From Escherichia coli (GTDB lineage Bacteria > Pseudomonadota > Gammaproteobacteria > Enterobacterales > Enterobacteriaceae): 64,000 nucleotides of DNA. A program made the translations under genes and the position numbers. Where the stretch lies: assembly GCF_003018235.1 (NCBI RefSeq), contig NZ_CP027437.1; one strand, given 5' to 3'. How positions within the stretch are numbered: the first letter of the stretch is position 1; each line of letters begins with the position of its first letter. A model generated the notes under the pieces. The model worked only from the letters and a program-made list of their open reading frames with translations, had not been told where the DNA came from and did no database searches. Below, one piece after another: positions 5,545 through 20,167 of this stretch.

Positions 5545-5999
5545 TACGCCTCCTGCTTGTCGCGCAGCAGCTGGAACTCGCAGCTCTGTGGAATAGTCAG
5601 GTGGCAACCAATATTCATCGCCCAGGCTTCAACCTTACACAGGAAGACATACATCTCTCCGGTATCAAGATCGGAGGTATGGCGTAACGACTGGATAGTG
5701 GTGATATCACCGGTTACGACATCAACCAGGTCTTTGGTTTCATAACCGAGATATGTGTGTTTGAGAGCATCTTTTACCCAAGCTGGAGTGGCGAACGTTT
5801 TACCCCTGCTGATGAGGTATTCACTGATTTCGCTGTACCACATGTGGCTGAGTGCATTCTGGGAAAGACTGCGTCTCTCGCGCCACGGTTTAAGCACCAT
5901 GCGAAAGCATTTGCCGTCCTCCAGATAAGGCTGGATCTGCCGACCGATAGCGGTGAAGTTACCGCGATGCAATTTGATACCATCTTGTGGGAGGTTCAC
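5544..5999 (-). CDS. ybcN: YbcN (NinB-position DNA-binding protein)
   Basis: 151 aa, GTG start. [41 protein letters not shown] matches recalled YbcN. Confidence 0.9.
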
Positions 6000-6097
6000 G
6001 CTTCACCTCCGCAGAGATCAAACGCTGGATGCAAAATATCGCAGGTGCATTTCTGCATCTGTGAATGGAGAAGAGAGGTTGGATTGTATGTGCGCAT
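5996..6097 (-). CDS. ylcH: YlcH-like small protein (33 aa)
   Basis: [33 protein letters not shown]. The stop overlaps the ybcN GTG (GTGA). Confidence 0.55.
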
Positions 6098-6191
6098 AAA
6101 CGTCCCCGTTTAGCGCAGAAGTCACCGGAGGAGTTCAAACTCTGGTGACTTAATTATGGCAAGTTGATTGTTGAAAATCAATTTAGTGGAT

Positions 6192-6974
6192 TTAGGCGCA
6201 ATACAAAGGATCATTAGCAGCTCTAATACCGCCCTGAATCGCAAGCCCTGTATGGCAATTTGACATTGAGCATGATTGCCATCTGTGCAAGGGACCTCCA
6301 TTAATCGAAACTTCCAGCAGATCTTTATCTCCTTTCATCCTGACCCCTTCATACAACATATCAAGACGCTCAACAATCAATCCTGTTGGAGGTTCCATTT
6401 TTAGAACGAGGGCAAACTCTCCTGGCCCACGTCGTATTGTTATACGCGGGCCGGTACACTCCACATCCCAATTGTCTGATTTAGCTTTCCATTCATTTTC
6501 ATCTATCAGTAAAGTCTCCTTACCAATAGAATTACAGAAAATTCCTGATAAAAGCATCGGTCCATGTGGTATGGGTGAAGGTTTCACAGAAAGAATGGGT
6601 TGTTCGTTGACTACAATCAAATTTTGACAGTTATGAAACGTCACTCCTGCAAATTTTACTGTTATAGGCTCATTATGAAAATCAAACATTTCATTTGCAA
6701 AACCAGCCTGTAAGCACTTGGGATTTCTGTCAGCTATTTCCACTGTCTGTGCTGAAAGTCTACCACGAGCTCTTTTTTGATTGCATTGGGAGCAAAGAAG
6801 TGTCATTCCATTCGGATCATGTACTTTGGCATCAACGAAGTCAGGTTTAAAATGCTCATAATCATAAAATCCAAATCCACAAATTACACAGCCAAAGCCG
6901 CACCTTTGCCTTATCTGACGTTTTATTGTCTCAGGTATTCTTCTTGAGAGCCCGTGTTTATTAATATTGTCCAT
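6192..6974 (-). CDS. HNH-nuclease-domain protein with an uncharacterised ~170-aa C-terminal domain
   Basis: 260 aa. The N-terminal sequence CGFGCVICG...YDYEHF...HDPNGMTLLCSQCNQKRARG has two CxxC pairs plus His and Asn. AT-rich. It replaces ybcL/ybcM of K-12 DLP12. Confidence 0.7.
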   Translation of the reverse strand: MDNINKHGLSRRIPETIKRQIRQRCGFGCVICGFGFYDYEHFKPDFVDAKVHDPNGMTLLCSQCNQKRARGRLSAQTVEIADRNPKCLQAGFANEMFDFHNEPITVKFAGVTFHNCQNLIVVNEQPILSVKPSPIPHGPMLLSGIFCNSIGKETLLIDENEWKAKSDNWDVECTGPRITIRRGPGEFALVLKMEPPTGLIVERLDMLYEGVRMKGDKDLLEVSINGGPLHRWQSCSMSNCHTGLAIQGGIRAANDPLYCA

Positions 6975-7148
6975 ATGGTTAGTACGCTATAAGTTTGTTT
7001 CTATAATTTTACCACAATAGATAAGTTTGTATCAGAAATCGCTATATGGAGTGAGCGGAATATTTATATTATTCATGCAATTGCTCTCCCGTACGCAGCC
7101 CGCACTTCCGTCATCGCAGAATGACGGAAGCCTTACTAACTAGCGCCT

Positions 7149-7472
7149 TTATTGAAACAGATTCTGAGGTAAATGCGGCAATACTCGACTCCACTTATCA
7201 TCCTGCCACGGCTGAAGTTTTACATGTGCCGTTTCTCGGACGAGGATTGCTCGCGCTCTGTTGAGTATCTGGGGATATTCTTGCTCGATGGAAGTGAAGT
7301 GACCAGCTTCACCATGCTCCGCATCCTGAAGAAGATGAGTAACGTTCTGGTAGGCAATTAACATCACATTCCCTGCTCGCCATAACCAGGCGAGTGTGCA
7401 AAGTTCGTTATCAGTGAATTGTTTTGTGATTGGGGATTGTTGAACTGCTAGAACGAGAACGCCAGCATCCAT
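7149..7472 (-). CDS. Hypothetical protein (107 aa)
   Basis: ORF only; no motif recognised. It lies between ybcK and the HNH gene on the same strand. Confidence 0.45.
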   Translation of the reverse strand: MDAGVLVLAVQQSPITKQFTDNELCTLAWLWRAGNVMLIAYQNVTHLLQDAEHGEAGHFTSIEQEYPQILNRARAILVRETAHVKLQPWQDDKWSRVLPHLPQNLFQ

Positions 7473-7583
7473 TGGCAGTCCCTATAGTAAAACCATAGCT
7501 CAGGACGCTTCGTTCAGGATAGATAATTTTATTGTACTTACCTAACTTTCTTACTATAGCACGGTTGAAAAAGTGATTATTAC

Positions 7584-9110
7584 TCAAAAATAAACCTCAC
7601 CATCAACCATATATTTGAGAGTACTTATCGCCTGCCGGGCGGATATTGTTTTCATTAAAGGATAGTGTTTAAAAACAATGCCATTCATAAAATAGATATC
7701 ACAGGTTTTATTATCTGTATTGATTATGATTTTTTCGAATGTTTTATAGGCAAGTGTACGACATAGCTCTCGCCCATTTTTACTGGTTAAGTCAATAGCA
7801 TGAAAATCACCAAGTGAGCTCACCGCTTTACTCTTCAAAGTTTTTAATGATACAGAAGCCCTTCGTAATTCCTTATCTAATACTCTGATTTTTTCTGCTA
7901 TAGCGGTAACTTCAGGCGCAACAGATAATGCAGCAATTAAATTATTAATTTTCATATGGAGCTCAATAATTCTCAACTCTAAAGTTTCATTAGCATCTTT
8001 CTTGTTTTCAACTGGTTGGATTTTACTACAATTAAAAAGCAACTCATTAATGATATTATAATCAACCAAATCTCTCTTTATTGATGGCCTGCCACATCGA
8101 TGCAGTCTTCTCATCGGACAAACATAATAGCCATGCAAACTTCCAGATACCGCATGAACAATCATGGTATTACCACAAGCCTCGCACTTCATAACTGTTC
8201 GAAGTAGATTTATCAACATAGGATTTTTGCTACTATTGCTAATACCAAAAGGTGCCAACCGAATTTCCTGCACAGCGTAAAACAAATCATCTGATATGAC
8301 TCTGGGATAATAGCCAGCGATTTCACTTATTCCTTTACCTCTTGCACGATATGAAGGTACGCATATACCTATCAGAGCTTTATTCGCTAATAATTTTTCA
8401 ATTACAGAAGGCCCCCATGCACTTTCTTTTCCTGAGAAATTCTTTACAGCATGATCATTTAAATACTTGGCTATTGCATTCAATGAGCGCCTTTCCATCC
8501 TGAGTTTAAAAATTAGCTCAATAGTTTTCACCCTGTCGGGGTCTGGAACAAAAGCCGTTCTTTTGTCATCTAAGGAGAGCCATCTCGGACAAGACGCCGT
8601 CATAATCGTACCTGATTCCAGTGCATCCTGCCGTTTTTTCTTCCATGATAATTTAACCCGACTTGACTTTATCTCGCTTTCTTCATTTGCCCTTTGTGCT
8701 ATAAGTATGGCTTTTATTAATGAATATGGCTCATTCAAAGAGTCAATATTATAGACTGTATTGTCGCAAAGAGTTATAACATCAATACCGTGATTCAAAA
8801 TCAATTTCAGACGTTCAATCGCTTCACCGACTTTTTCTCTTGAAAGTCTGTCCAGACTTTCAACTAACAATGTAGTTCCTGGCAATATATAACCATGCTC
8901 TATAGCATCTAAAAATTCCGAAAAAGCTCCTGATTGTGCATGCTTTCCTTTGAATGCACTTAATCCTAAATCTTCATATGTTATGGTATCAAGATAATAA
9001 TCACTATTTACCTTTAACCATTCAGCAATAAGTCTTCTCTGTCGGTTTAATGAGTCGCCAGACATCTGACCTGGTGATGAAAATCGCATATATGCTATGG
9101 CTTTTTTCAT
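7584..9110 (-). CDS. ybcK: Large serine recombinase YbcK
   Basis: 508 aa. MKKAIAYMRFSSPGQMSGDSLNRQ contains the resolvase catalytic Ser region. A recombinase/zinc-ribbon C-terminal part (CEACG...CPMRRLHRC) follows. The length equals K-12 YbcK. Confidence 0.9.
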   Translation of the reverse strand: MKKAIAYMRFSSPGQMSGDSLNRQRRLIAEWLKVNSDYYLDTITYEDLGLSAFKGKHAQSGAFSEFLDAIEHGYILPGTTLLVESLDRLSREKVGEAIERLKLILNHGIDVITLCDNTVYNIDSLNEPYSLIKAILIAQRANEESEIKSSRVKLSWKKKRQDALESGTIMTASCPRWLSLDDKRTAFVPDPDRVKTIELIFKLRMERRSLNAIAKYLNDHAVKNFSGKESAWGPSVIEKLLANKALIGICVPSYRARGKGISEIAGYYPRVISDDLFYAVQEIRLAPFGISNSSKNPMLINLLRTVMKCEACGNTMIVHAVSGSLHGYYVCPMRRLHRCGRPSIKRDLVDYNIINELLFNCSKIQPVENKKDANETLELRIIELHMKINNLIAALSVAPEVTAIAEKIRVLDKELRRASVSLKTLKSKAVSSLGDFHAIDLTSKNGRELCRTLAYKTFEKIIINTDNKTCDIYFMNGIVFKHYPLMKTISARQAISTLKYMVDGEVYF

Positions 9111-9308
9111 GGTGACACCTGCTAACGTATGCTTTTATAAACCTTAGTGGCGAGATATAATTTTTGTTTAATTTTTATTTAAAAAGACAATTAAGGTCAC
9201 ATTATCTTGAATATACAACAATAATCGTATTGCAATTTTCTTACGCCATAATCTTGAAAGCACAAAAGAATACATAAAAAATAAAGACATTAACAAAAAG
9301 CATAAAAC

Positions 9309-9334
9309 GAGGCTCATATAAATATAAGAGCCTC
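9309..9334 (-). terminator. emrE terminator
   Basis: GAGGCTC/GAGCCTC 7-bp stem. On the minus strand it is followed by GTTTTATGCTTTTTGTT. Confidence 0.5.
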
Positions 9335-9364
9335 CATATTTTAGTCGTTTAGAAACAAATTATT

Positions 9365-9697
9365 TTAATGTGGTGTGCTTCGTGACAATAAATTAATAAC
9401 CAACACACCGGCACAAATCAACATCATGCCTATAATGGCTGGCAGGTCCAGCCGTTGGCCGAAAAATCCCCATGACAGTAAGCTAATCAGGACAATACCG
9501 ACTCCTGACCAGATAGCATAAGCAATCCCTGTAGGAATATAAGCCAGCGTCTGAGCTAATAACCAGAATGATGCACAATAACAAATAATTGTACCAACAG
9601 ATGGCCATAACCGTGTAAAACCTTCTGAAAACTTCATTAAGGTTGTACCAATGACCTCTGCAAGTATTGCACCACCAAGATAAATATAAGGATTCAT
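9365..9697 (-). CDS. emrE: SMR multidrug efflux transporter EmrE
   Basis: The 110-aa form MNPYIYLGGAILAEVIGTTLMKFSEGFTRLWPSVGTIICY... matches recalled EmrE, including Glu14. Confidence 0.95.
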   Translation of the reverse strand: MNPYIYLGGAILAEVIGTTLMKFSEGFTRLWPSVGTIICYCASFWLLAQTLAYIPTGIAYAIWSGVGIVLISLLSWGFFGQRLDLPAIIGMMLICAGVLVINLLSRSTPH

Positions 9698-9764
9698 AGC
9701 ATATTCTTTCCTGTTCAAACTGGAGAGAATTGTACTACAGTTTGAACTCAACTCACCTGTTTCA

Positions 9765-10067
9765 TCATTGTGTACCCATTGATGTTCTTTTATATACCCT
9801 CAATACCCGTTTCATCGCGGCACTCTGGCGACACTCCTTAAAAATCAGATTCGTGCTCACCTTTCCTTCCCGTTCTTCTCTGGTAGCGAACCGGTAATAC
9901 ACCGTTCGCCAGACCTTACCATCAACGACCAGGATTCCTGCCCGCGCCATTTTAGCCGCAGCCTGATTTATGCTGGTTACGGTTGCGCCTGTTACCGCGG
10001 CAACGTCCTGTGCACAGAAGCTCTTATGCGTCCCCAGGTAATGAATAATTGCCTCTTTGCCCGTCAT
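9765..10067 (-). CDS. ren: Ren (Rex-exclusion resistance) protein
   Basis: MTGKEAIIHYLGTH.SFCA.DVAA.TGATVTSINQAAAKMARAG matches recalled lambda Ren. It follows P. Confidence 0.88.
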   Translation of the reverse strand: MTGKEAIIHYLGTHKSFCAQDVAAVTGATVTSINQAAAKMARAGILVVDGKVWRTVYYRFATREEREGKVSTNLIFKECRQSAAMKRVLRVYKRTSMGTQ

Positions 10068-12644: not shown

Positions 12645-12673
12645 AGATTAAAACCATGGTTGTTTTTAGTCAA
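12645..12673 (-). promoter_or_regulatory. Candidate pR
   Basis: Minus strand: TTGACT, 17 nt, TAATCT. An operator-like repeat sits in the spacer. Confidence 0.55.
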
Positions 12674-12713
12674 CAACCATTTTCGTTTGATGAAATAAAA
12701 CCTTGGTTGTACA
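12650..12713. promoter_or_regulatory. Candidate oR operators (three 17-bp sites; consensus about AAAACAAC-N4-GTTTT)
   Basis: Sites at 12650-66 (rc AAAACAACCATGGTTTT), 12670-86 (TCAACAACCATTTTCGT) and 12697-713 (rc TGTACAACCAAGGTTTT). The same motif recurs at oL. Confidence 0.5.
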
Positions 12714-12715
12714 TT
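12687..12715 (+). promoter_or_regulatory. Candidate pRM giving a leaderless cI mRNA
   Basis: TTGATG, 17 nt, TACATT. The A of the cI ATG (12722) lies 7 nt downstream of the -10, and there is no SD. Confidence 0.4.
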
Positions 12716-12721
12716 TGGACT

Positions 12722-13411
12722 ATGAAAACAACACTCTCAGAAAGACTTAAAGAAGCCAGATTAGCGCGAGGCCTTACACAAAAGGCGCTTGGGGATTTGG
12801 TCGGGGTTAGCCAAGCAGCTATTCAGAAAATCGAAACAGGGAAAGCTAACCAAACAACTAAAATCGTGGAGATCGCGAACGCTTTGGGTGTGCGCGCAGA
12901 ATGGTTATCTTCTGGCGTTGGAAATATGTCAGACAGTACAGTGCAACCAATACAAACAACTGTCAGCCATTCCAAATACTTTAAGATTGACGTTCTTGAT
13001 ATCGAAGTGAGTGCCGGGCCGGGAGTCATCAACCGTGAGTTTGTAGAAGTTCTACGCTCGGTTGAGTACTCGTTTGACGATGCTCGTCACATGTTCGATG
13101 GTAGGAAGGCAGAAAATATCCGCATCATTAACGTACGCGGTGACAGCATGTCAGGAACGATTGAACCTGGTGATCTTCTATTCGTTGATATCACGGTTAA
13201 ATCTTTCGACGGTGATGGTATCTATGCGTTTCTGTACGACGACACAGCCCATGTAAAGCGCCTGCAAATGATGAAGGATAAGCTGCTGGTTATCTCTGAT
13301 AACAAAAGCTACTCACCGTGGGACCCGATCGAGAAAGATGAGATGAACCGGGTATTTATCTTCGGGAAAGTTATTGGGAGCATGCCGCAGACGTATAGGA
13401 AGCATGGATAG
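12722..13411 (+). CDS. cI: CI-type prophage repressor (HTH_XRE plus S24 LexA-like peptidase)
   Basis: LSERLKEARLARGLTQKALGDLVGVSQAAIQKIETG is the HTH. EVSAGPG is a candidate Ala-Gly cleavage site. GDSMSGTIEPGD and VKRL carry the Ser/Lys dyad. Start moved from 12656 to 12722 so the operators stay intergenic. Confidence 0.85.
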   Translation: MKTTLSERLKEARLARGLTQKALGDLVGVSQAAIQKIETGKANQTTKIVEIANALGVRAEWLSSGVGNMSDSTVQPIQTTVSHSKYFKIDVLDIEVSAGPGVINREFVEVLRSVEYSFDDARHMFDGRKAENIRIINVRGDSMSGTIEPGDLLFVDITVKSFDGDGIYAFLYDDTAHVKRLQMMKDKLLVISDNKSYSPWDPIEKDEMNRVFIFGKVIGSMPQTYRKHG

Positions 13412-13491
13412 TACCAATTAAAAATTATCAACCGGGCATTGTGCTCATTCAGTAAAACAACTTAATTATTCATTTTAGAATGGAGAACTTA

Positions 13492-14553
13492 ATGGATACT
13501 TTAAAATATGAGAAATTCTCTGATTTTGATCACAATGACCCATTTTTTGACTCTTTAAAAAAAGATTATAAAGAGTTTCCTCTTTGGTTAGAAAAAAAAG
13601 CCAGAGAAGGAGAATCAGCTTATGTGCTCTATGATGACAAGCATAAAATCGAAGGTTTTATGTATCTAAAAGAAAATGATGATGCAAATGACATTAATCC
13701 AGCGCTCCCACCAGGACGTCATCTAAAGATAGGAACATTCAAATTTGAATCTAAAGGCACCCTTCGCGGACAACGATTTCTAAAAAAAGCGTTTGACCAT
13801 GCATTTTCATCAAAATCTGATGATATTTATGTTACTGTTTTCGACAAACACGTCCATCTAATAAAACTTTTCCAAACGTACGGATTTTACATTCATGGTG
13901 AAAAAGAAACACATAACGGGAAAGAGTTTGTATATGCGAGGTCTTTGCATGAGCCTTATGGTGATATTTTATTAGATTACCCTCGAATAATGACATCAAG
14001 GGCCAACAAATATTTACTGGCGATTTATCCCGAATATCACACTAGACTATTCCCTGATTCAAAACTTGTAAATGAATCACCAGATATTGTCAAAGATATA
14101 TCCCATGCTAACAGCATTCATAAAATTTACATATGTGGAATGCGTTCTGTGATGGGAATGAAAAGAGGAGATATCATTGTCATCTATAGAACCGGAGACA
14201 AAAAAGGGCCAGCTCGCTATCGTTCTGTAGCCAGTACATTATGTGTAGTTGAGAGCGTAAAAAATATTTCTGAATTTTTAAGCGAAGATAGTTTTGTAGA
14301 CTATTGTATTCGTTTTAGCGTATTTTCTGAAGATGAACTCAGAAAAATCTATAAAGAACGTCGATACCCTTTCATTATAAGATTCACATACAATCTGTCT
14401 TTGCCAAAGAGACCCAATCGTGCTATTTTAATAGATCATGTGGGGCTAAATGGTTCGCGTGCATTCCGATGGAGTCACTTTAAACTCACAAATGAGCAGT
14501 TCTTAAAGATCATCGAGTTAGGCAAGATAAATGAAAGTTTTATTATCCATTAA
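13492..14553 (+). CDS. Two-domain accessory protein: GNAT-like N-terminal half plus PUA-like (EVE/ASCH-like) C-terminal half
   Basis: 353 aa (357 if started at 13480). GTLRGQRFLKKAFDHA and LIKLFQTYGFYIHGE resemble GNAT motif A and the following GF strand. MKRGDIIVIYRTG...YRSVASTLCVVESV resembles a PUA-like beta-barrel. Domain calls were made by eye. The gene is visibly AT-rich. Confidence 0.55.
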   Translation: MDTLKYEKFSDFDHNDPFFDSLKKDYKEFPLWLEKKAREGESAYVLYDDKHKIEGFMYLKENDDANDINPALPPGRHLKIGTFKFESKGTLRGQRFLKKAFDHAFSSKSDDIYVTVFDKHVHLIKLFQTYGFYIHGEKETHNGKEFVYARSLHEPYGDILLDYPRIMTSRANKYLLAIYPEYHTRLFPDSKLVNESPDIVKDISHANSIHKIYICGMRSVMGMKRGDIIVIYRTGDKKGPARYRSVASTLCVVESVKNISEFLSEDSFVDYCIRFSVFSEDELRKIYKERRYPFIIRFTYNLSLPKRPNRAILIDHVGLNGSRAFRWSHFKLTNEQFLKIIELGKINESFIIH

Positions 14554-14908
14554 GCCTGAGTTTGCAGAAAAAATATTGAACGGAACAAAGCGGTTCGAGT
14601 TTCGTAAAGGTATATTCAAAAATCCGCAAATTAGCACCGTTGTTATTTATGCCACGATGCCATTAGGTAAAGTTGTTGGTCAATTCCGTATTGAATCAAT
14701 ACTAAGTGACGAACCGGAATCTCTTTGGAAAAAGACGGAAAAACACGCAGGTATTTCTAAGCAATTTTATGACTCATATTATTCAGGTAGAGAAAAGGCC
14801 TACGCAATAAAAATTGGTGAAGTGGAAAGATATAAAGAACCAATTCCTATCTCTGCTCTAGGTAGTAATATTAAGCCACCACAATCATATCTTTACCTAC
14901 CTGCGTAA
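14531..14908 (+). CDS. ASCH-domain protein (PUA-like fold)
   Basis: 125 aa. MKVLLSIKPEFAEKILNGTKRFEFRK...VVIYATMPLGKVVGQFRIESI has the typical ASCH N-terminal pattern. It overlaps the upstream gene by 23 nt. Confidence 0.7.
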   Translation: MKVLLSIKPEFAEKILNGTKRFEFRKGIFKNPQISTVVIYATMPLGKVVGQFRIESILSDEPESLWKKTEKHAGISKQFYDSYYSGREKAYAIKIGEVERYKEPIPISALGSNIKPPQSYLYLPA

Positions 14909-20090: not shown

Positions 20091-20167
20091 TGGCGCGCCC
20101 TGCAGGATTCGAACCTGCGGCCCACGACTTAGAAGGTCGTTGCTCTATCCAACTGAGCTAAGGGCGC
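20091..20167 (-). tRNA. argU: tRNA-Arg (anticodon UCU)
   Basis: Minus strand: GCGCCCTTAGCTCAGTTGGATAGAGCAACGACCTTCTAAGTCGTGGGCCGCAGGTTCGAATCCTGCAGGGCGCGCCA. 77 nt, cloverleaf, encoded CCA. Confidence 0.97.

Follow-up and report, generated by a model that had tools for sequence, protein, structure and literature searches.

A candidate single-gene defence nuclease in a cargo slot of a DLP12-like Escherichia coli prophage

Introduction

The stretch of Escherichia coli DNA analysed here, 64,000 nucleotides (nt) of contig NZ_CP027437.1 and referred to throughout as the window, carries a DLP12-like prophage, with the argU site marked by tRNA-Arg(tct) (20091-20167), intD and the sfm genes. Between emrE and ylcH/ybcN lies a block (6098-9364) that contains, on the minus strand, a gene (6192..6974) for a protein of 260 amino acids (aa), annotated in RefSeq as a 'hypothetical protein' (WP_001348590.1). 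The first-pass annotation of this DNA, made from the sequence alone, had proposed that the gene encodes a nuclease fused to an unfamiliar domain, and that it belongs to an anti-phage or exclusion cassette sitting beside a recombinase. The question raised by the locus is whether such a gene serves the lysogen, the lytic cycle of the prophage or only itself. The answer favoured below is that it is, on balance, probably a defence or exclusion nuclease of the prophage that acts as a single gene.

Gene order and base composition

On the minus strand, in the early-right direction, the genes run O, P, ren, emrE, ylcJ, ybcK, a 107-aa open reading frame (ORF), the 260-aa ORF, a ylcH-like mini-ORF, ybcN, ninE, ybcO, rusA, ylcG and Q, and the three ORFs named in the first-pass annotation (an intact ybcK of 508 aa and those of 107 and 260 aa) were all recovered in their places on that strand. 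The AT-richness noticed there for the block between emrE and ylcH/ybcN was confirmed, as 6098-9364 has a guanine-plus-cytosine (GC) fraction of 0.381, the mean for stretches of equal length across the window being 0.496 (standard deviation 0.045). Only 0.8% of such stretches reach a GC fraction that low, and every one of them overlaps the block itself. The 260-aa HNH gene has a GC fraction of 0.41, compared with a background of 0.50.

In the DLP12 prophage of E. coli K-12 the order is emrE-ylcJ-ybcK-ybcL-ybcM-ylcH-ybcN. Homology to K-12 (BLASTN) is lost at window position 7545 and resumes at 6181, and the intervening 1363 base pairs (bp), the unstranded interval 6182..7544, thus substitute for the ybcL-ybcM interval. 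Gene order and junctions therefore agree with the earlier suggestion that this prophage has swapped ybcL/ybcM for other genes.

A slot with interchangeable cargo

Junctions were mapped by BLASTN alignment of five further alleles with the window, the limits of the differing block being set against K-12, CREC-544, PCP06021, P276M and AGR6128. Every aligned allele has its right junction at 6181/6182, and the left junctions vary: that of the K-12 ybcL-ybcM allele lies at 7545, that of an allele with an α/β hydrolase on the opposite strand (L013, 2326-3369) at 7299, that of an allele with a 309-aa BstA homologue (PADLOC E 3.6e-121) at 7156, and that of an allele with a 168/169-aa protein of unknown function (L011, 2807-3313, and L012) at 7098. 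Left junctions were not mapped for two further alleles, one of which holds a HEPN-domain protein with a 133-aa partner, the other, from EDL933, being essentially empty. The BstA and HNH alleles have the same right junction and are both preceded by the truncated antirepressor gene. The 168-aa protein has no PADLOC or Pfam match, and the hydrolase, so named by annotation, has none in PADLOC.

The frequency of each cargo was counted in 5426 complete E. coli genomes, accepting any match that covered at least 80% of the query, with the gene located anywhere in the genome, so that the counts are not specific to the slot. The HNH cassette is present in 79 genomes (1.5%), the BstA homologue in 104, the 168-aa protein in 180, the HEPN pair in 190 and the α/β hydrolase in 671, with ybcL-ybcM found in 3216 genomes, in 667 of which the match is at least 99% identical. 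These alignments mark a true hotspot of gene exchange, running from ybcK (or the antirepressor-like gene) to ylcH, in which different cargo meets one fixed junction at 6181. The first-pass view of a swap-prone prophage slot is therefore upheld, and comparison of genomes across the ybcK-ylcH interval reveals variability, not a run of ordinary conserved nin-region genes.

Strain 582 (L027, NZ_CP120568.1) was also observed to carry a 100% identical HNH cassette, accompanied by ybcK and emrE, in a complete lambda-like prophage inserted at icd, and the module therefore moves between prophages at different attachment sites. In P276M, a DUF4041 protein that matches PD-Lambda-1 (L012, 5355-6371; E 1.6e-164) replaces emrE-ylcJ-ybcK, and the antirepressor-like gene is full length at 202 aa. 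Because P276M holds PD-Lambda-1 instead of emrE-ybcK, the ren-to-antirepressor interval is, by the same kind of comparison, read as a second cargo slot, the two adjacent slots being parted by the antirepressor-like gene. The emrE-ybcK block itself looks like an insertion that truncated this gene.

The 260-aa protein and its family

The AlphaFold model of the 260-aa protein (predicted local distance difference test score, pLDDT, 87.7; predicted template modelling score, pTM, 0.74) has two parts, an α/β part up to approximately residue 90 followed by 16 β-strands. The first part (codons 1-90; 6705..6974, minus strand) is a zinc-ribbon HNH domain with the ββα-metal fold that defines the HNH/His-Me finger superfamily, its zinc site formed by C29/C32 and C61/C64 and its active site by H41, H52 and N65. 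The second (codons 91-246; 6237..6704, minus strand) is an all-β domain in which I157, N160, W169, D170 and G175 are the most conserved residues, and for which no structural relative was found in the PDB or BFVD. The first-pass description of an N-terminal HNH/zinc-ribbon nuclease of some 90 aa joined to a C-terminal domain of no recognised kind is well supported by the conserved motif, the two-part model and the lack of a relative in these two databases.

Across 71 family sequences from many phyla, C25, C29, C32, H41, H52 and C61 are invariant. Position 64 is Cys in 51 of the 71 and His in 19, and position 65 is His in 53, Asn in 15 (as in the window copy) and Gln in three. The active site and zinc ribbon of the window copy are therefore intact. 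In the β-domain the polar residues N160 and D170 are near-invariant and position 169 is aromatic, a pattern of conservation that suggests a functional surface on this domain.

Searches of the 260-aa protein against Pfam, NCBIfam and PADLOC v2 gave nothing above threshold. The Pfam HNH model (PF01844) reaches 14.5 bits (E 0.041), below its gathering threshold of 21.4, so that the protein is placed in the HNH group by its structure and motif. When PDB sequences were searched with a profile, only HIV gp160 was returned (E 0.07), which was judged a chance match. PHROG 6544 (unknown function) matches the protein from end to end (E 1.8e-141), and a literature search by accession, by DLP12 hotspots and by nin-region defence found no description of it.

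Homologues sharing sequence words with the 260-aa protein number 305 at E<=1e-3; they are 247-317 aa long, 50-79% identical, and come from Enterobacter, Klebsiella, Citrobacter, Burkholderia, Comamonas, Pseudomonas and Vibrio. The C-terminal domain alone forms 732 clusters at 50% identity, and 209 matches were obtained among 185,579 species genomes, including cyanobacteria, planctomycetes, Streptomyces, Deinococcus and a Methanothrix metagenome-assembled genome (MAG). Phages themselves almost entirely lack the family: among 50,697 phage records the single one with a member is a predicted Klebsiella prophage, and the family is accordingly not regarded as a core phage function. The β-domain always follows an HNH domain, and the sole architectural variation is a C-terminal SEC-C motif or TPR tail. 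Two distant members, P0155 (331 aa) and P0246 (383 aa), were observed to have the HNH and β-domain core plus a C-terminal SEC-C zinc motif or TPR repeats, tails which may be added interaction modules. A 1222-aa match (P0157), considered as an alternative architecture, was dismissed as a junk tandem repeat.

Genomic context of the relatives

When all ORFs within 5 kilobases (kb) of the gene were clustered across 79 loci from many phyla, no conserved partner gene emerged; the commonest neighbour family other than the gene's own occurs at seven of the 79 loci, at varying distance and on varying strands. In prophages, the Enterobacter homologue lies directly after lambda P and is followed by small ORFs and a RES-domain protein, the Klebsiella homologue is in the early-right region between the replication genes and a DUF1367 gene, and that of Pseudomonas is in the early-left arm on the strand opposite to its neighbours, like a moron. 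The Comamonas homologue adjoins a divergent XRE-type regulator and a transposase. At the end of an Alcaligenes faecalis prophage (L021, 7001-10338), a family member was observed with a 67-aa ORF, a 245-aa McrA-like HNH protein and a DUF4238 protein, in an island between the tail/lysis genes and the chromosome; the McrA-like protein matches PADLOC mREase_IV, a type IV enzyme, at E 3.5e-7.

Strong PADLOC matches were also present among 300 ORFs sampled within 8 kb of relatives in other phyla, among them PtuA, HEC-05, type IV and type II restriction enzymes, Cas5e, a reverse transcriptase (RT)-protease, a complete DISARM system, DarT, MADS and AriA. Such defence-rich neighbourhoods are suggestive. 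A comparison of PADLOC matches within 2 kb and at 5-8 kb, tried as a control, was discarded as invalid, defence genes being present in both sets.

Evidence for and against a defence role

The 260-aa gene is, on this evidence, probably a single-gene prophage nuclease of defence or exclusion, working by superinfection exclusion or abortive infection to the benefit of both lysogen and prophage, although this is held with no great confidence. The reading is preferred because the gene is allelic in its slot with BstA and the HEPN pair, because it stands alone, and because an intact nuclease is joined to a conserved non-catalytic domain; accessory and defence-rich contexts, a patchy distribution and a foreign base composition argue in the same direction. 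In other E. coli the position that it occupies holds a BstA homologue, the HEPN pair or other cargo, and the presence of PD-Lambda-1 in the adjoining slot of P276M also counts in favour, as does the existence of a validated single-gene defence of like layout, DS-7. Neither the 107-aa ORF nor ybcK is needed for it.

A promoter-like site (CTGATA, an 18-nt spacer and TAAAAT, with TG upstream of the -10 hexamer) was found by pattern match at 7006..7035 on the minus strand, where it scored 9/12 plus TG in a consensus scan. It lies within the swapped cassette, 32 nt ahead of the start codon of the HNH gene, and the gene might be transcribed in the lysogen from this element as its own promoter. The β-domain, with its conserved N160 and W169-D170, would then recognise either some feature of an invading phage's DNA or a protein of the phage, this recognition would license the HNH site to cut DNA, and the cutting would destroy the invader or abort the infection. 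A bolder and rather doubtful reading is that the HNH and β-domain pairing founds a new, widely distributed group of immune nucleases that work as one protein, comprising over 700 clusters at 50% identity from Proteobacteria to Actinobacteria and a methanogen MAG. The orphan β-domain would then act as a sensor or reader of a kind not seen before and would activate the HNH domain.

Several observations weigh against a defence role. No PADLOC v2 model matches the protein, the best being PtuB at E 0.03, and WP_001348590 goes unmentioned in the literature and supplements searched. The putative promoter is a 9/12 consensus match from a regional scan that returned 17 sites against 12.4 expected, and no obvious Shine-Dalgarno sequence precedes the conserved HNH ATG. 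The gene is co-oriented with the early-right operon and could be a lytic-cycle gene, and two of the slot alleles, ybcL-ybcM and the hydrolase, are not known defence genes. Many neighbours of the relatives in distant phyla are housekeeping genes, and the counts of defence neighbours lack a proper background, the 5-8 kb set being as rich as the set within 2 kb. The β-domain, which never occurs with other effectors, may serve the nuclease in DNA binding or dimerisation and not as a sensor. The initial proposal of an anti-phage or exclusion cassette is thus strengthened by its context, namely the BstA and HEPN alleles, the solo gene and the neighbourhoods of its relatives, whilst PADLOC v2 does not recognise the protein.

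The gene could instead be a selfish, free-standing endonuclease of the homing type, which cuts genomes lacking it and is copied in by repair, its C-terminal domain being a DNA-binding module and the host gaining nothing. The HNH fold is a classic fold of homing endonucleases. A lone gene precisely delimited by conserved ones, the empty allele in EDL933, a very patchy spread across phyla with no partner gene, and a location among housekeeping genes in many distant genomes would all suit such an element, although most of the alternative alleles hold other cargo, known defence genes included, and not empty sites. Nor does the gene keep to one cognate site, as it occupies different positions in different prophages, and both of its domains are strongly conserved, with 50-79% identity between Enterobacteriaceae, Burkholderiales and Vibrio and with the polar residues of the β-domain kept. 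Free-standing homing endonucleases are, moreover, usually found in phage genomes, from which this family is nearly absent. Whilst HNH genes in lambdoid phages do appear mobile (PMC12315714), which speaks for homing, this explanation is considered unlikely.

It is similarly improbable that the gene is an ordinary lytic-cycle gene of the nin/early-right region, its nuclease being used by the induced prophage in, for example, recombination, the processing of replication intermediates or the degradation of host DNA. Its rarity, both in E. coli and among phage records, speaks against this, as does its interchange at one junction with unrelated genes or with nothing. The orientation that it shares with O, P, ren, ybcN, ninE, ybcO, rusA and Q would be expected of a lytic gene, and the DNA-transaction proteins YbcN, YbcO and RusA are encoded in the same region. 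The Enterobacter and Klebsiella homologues, too, lie in an early-right operon. The Pseudomonas copy, by contrast, is on the opposite strand in the early-left region and the Alcaligenes copy is at the prophage end, and the copies in Comamonas and many further phyla have no phage genes around them. As one form of defence, the protein could be a restriction enzyme that depends on DNA modification and has a new reader domain, although no known reader fold was found in the β-domain.

Flanking genes and other features

The 107-aa ORF (7149..7472, minus strand) had been described as belonging to no recognisable family, which proved incorrect. It matches Pfam P22_AR_C (PF10548; 51.5 bits, cut-off 22.4, E 1.1e-13), as well as PHROG 7640 and anti-repressor Ant PHROGs. 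Over its residues 5-107 it has 80% identity with residues 100-202 of the 202-aa P276M protein, which consists of Bro-N (residues 17-100) and P22AR_C. The N-terminal Bro-N/Ant DNA-binding domain is missing, leaving P22AR_C only. As the alignment is confined to residues 100-202, and as DNA homology to the antirepressor-like gene stops at 7459, a few codons past the ORF start, the ORF is identified as the 3' half of an antirepressor-like gene, that is, a 5'-truncated remnant of the Bro-N/P22AR_C type. The 5' half appears from the alignment to have been lost where the AT-rich emrE-ylcJ-ybcK block starts. Some version of the ORF is present in approximately 840 E. coli genomes.

The ybcK gene (7584..9110, minus strand) encodes an intact large serine recombinase of 508 aa with an N-terminal YMRFSSPGQ motif. 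All three domains of such enzymes are present, namely Resolvase (PF00239, E 7.7e-19), Recombinase (PF07508, E 2.2e-14) and Zn_ribbon_recom (PF13408, E 2e-7), and the protein also matches PHROG 95, integrase (E 2.5e-119). With a nucleotide identity of approximately 96% to K-12, ybcK is, by sequence comparison, assigned to the conserved flank and not to the swapped cassette. That YbcK moves the cassette, or the whole AT-rich block, by site-specific recombination had been raised in the first-pass annotation, and is now regarded as highly improbable. The recombinase is intact, it adjoins the variable slot and the right junction is identical across alleles, all of which would fit; the left junctions, however, differ (7545, 7299, 7156 and 7098), a search for att-like repeats found no direct or inverted repeats flanking the cassette beyond 14-20-mers at chance level, and prophages that lack ybcK (P276M and strain 08_3418) have the same slot alleles. 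The HNH gene itself also occurs without ybcK, its homologues elsewhere have no adjacent recombinase, and homologous recombination in the conserved flanks is sufficient to account for the pattern.

The remainder of the AT-rich block and its edge are common to K-12 (9168..9697, minus strand) and consist of ylcJ (9168-9317; Pfam YlcJ, E 2.4e-35) and emrE (9365-9697; by the RefSeq annotation of the near-identical locus L001), both on the minus strand and both with K-12 homology. On the other side, the conserved right flank (5996..6181) includes the ylcH-like ORF of 33 codons (5996-6097, minus strand), taken from the annotation of L001.

A 12-bp hairpin, GCUUCCGUCAUU-CUGC-GAUGACGGAAGU, detected from sequence and folding, is located at 7104..7131 on the minus strand, directly 3' of the stop codon of the 107-aa ORF and without a U-tract. 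It is kept in the alleles with 168-aa cargo (L011 and L012), in which homology begins at 7098, and is not found in the BstA allele, and it might act as a terminator, a processing site or a recombination boundary; the intergenic fold is unremarkable (z -0.93). Another promoter-like site (TTGATT, a 17-nt spacer and CATAAT, with TG) was found by the scan at 6181-6153 on the minus strand and begins exactly at the common junction. Within 6120-6181 an inverted repeat, GTCACC...GGTGAC, was seen by eye to follow it, ahead of the ylcH-like mini-ORF. An Rfam scan of 5800-9900 matched no family.

Elsewhere in the window, a second candidate defence cargo was observed at 13480-14908 on the plus strand, directly downstream of a cI-like repressor gene (12656-13411) and thus in a rexAB-like position. 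It consists of two overlapping AT-rich genes, for a 357-aa protein and a 125-aa ASCH-domain protein, which match A and B of the PADLOC candidate system PDC-M11 (E 2.1e-133 and 6.8e-52, respectively).

Implications and comparison with known systems

Should the 260-aa gene prove defensive, a compact family of nucleases that need no partner, and whose fold for regulation or recognition is new, would join the prophage-borne immune systems, and the junction between ybcK or the antirepressor-like gene and ylcH in DLP12-type prophages would be a hotspot in which to look for further unknown cargo, such as the 168-aa protein and the α/β hydrolase found in 180 and 671 genomes. If it is not, it would be one more mobile HNH gene, with little wider consequence. 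The gene is readily testable, as E. coli K-12 has the same prophage backbone with another allele.

Among characterised nucleases, Cap5 (PDB 7RWK, 7RWM and 8FM1), the HNH-SAVED effector of the cyclic oligonucleotide-based antiphage signalling system (CBASS), shares the HNH fold with the 260-aa protein at 13% sequence identity. The C-terminal SAVED domain and neighbouring CD-NTase that define Cap5 are both absent here, no cyclase or other CBASS gene being adjacent to the HNH gene in the window or at the 79 other loci. PtuB, the HNH nuclease of Septu and of retron Eco7, has no β-domain and its match (E 0.03) is not significant. Septu also needs an adjacent PtuA ATPase, whereas in the window the HNH gene is flanked by the antirepressor remnant and ylcH, and elsewhere PtuA was found once among 150 sampled neighbours, so that neither of the two marks of Septu, a significant PtuB match and an adjacent PtuA, is present. 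In the modification-dependent restriction enzymes EcoKMcrA, TagI, ScoMcrA and VcaM4I the HNH domain is C-terminal, the reverse of the order in the 260-aa protein. The McrA N-domain and the SRA, SBD and PUA-like readers gave no match to the β-domain, the aligned lengths of 69-80 residues covering the HNH part only, and a recognisable reader of modified bases (SRA, EVE/PUA, McrA-N or McrB-N), as type IV restriction enzymes possess, was not found.

In layout, the protein comes closest among published systems to DS-7 of DefensePredictor (WP_225403053.1, 368 aa), a single-gene E. coli system listed as validated, in which HHpred places a Cap5-like N-terminal HNH domain before a C-terminal, non-enzymatic, β-rich DUF2634 domain resembling a phage baseplate (PMC13092281). 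Solo status is common to both, but DS-7 is longer (368 aa against 260 aa) and the C-terminal domain of the 260-aa protein matches neither baseplate nor other viral structures. Homology to DS-7 was rejected (hhalign probability of 0.4% against the 260-aa family profile), which adds to the points that weigh against defence. BstA, an experimentally shown abortive-infection protein of prophages (PMC8585504), is likewise single-gene prophage cargo and an allele of the same slot, but is an unrelated protein with a KilA-N-like DNA-binding domain and no HNH. By analogy, the 260-aa protein would work like the Cap5, PtuB and McrA families without being a member of any, since it shares the HNH fold but lacks the partner or domain that defines each. 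It is a plausible candidate for a variant of a familiar kind of system, and not for something categorically new.

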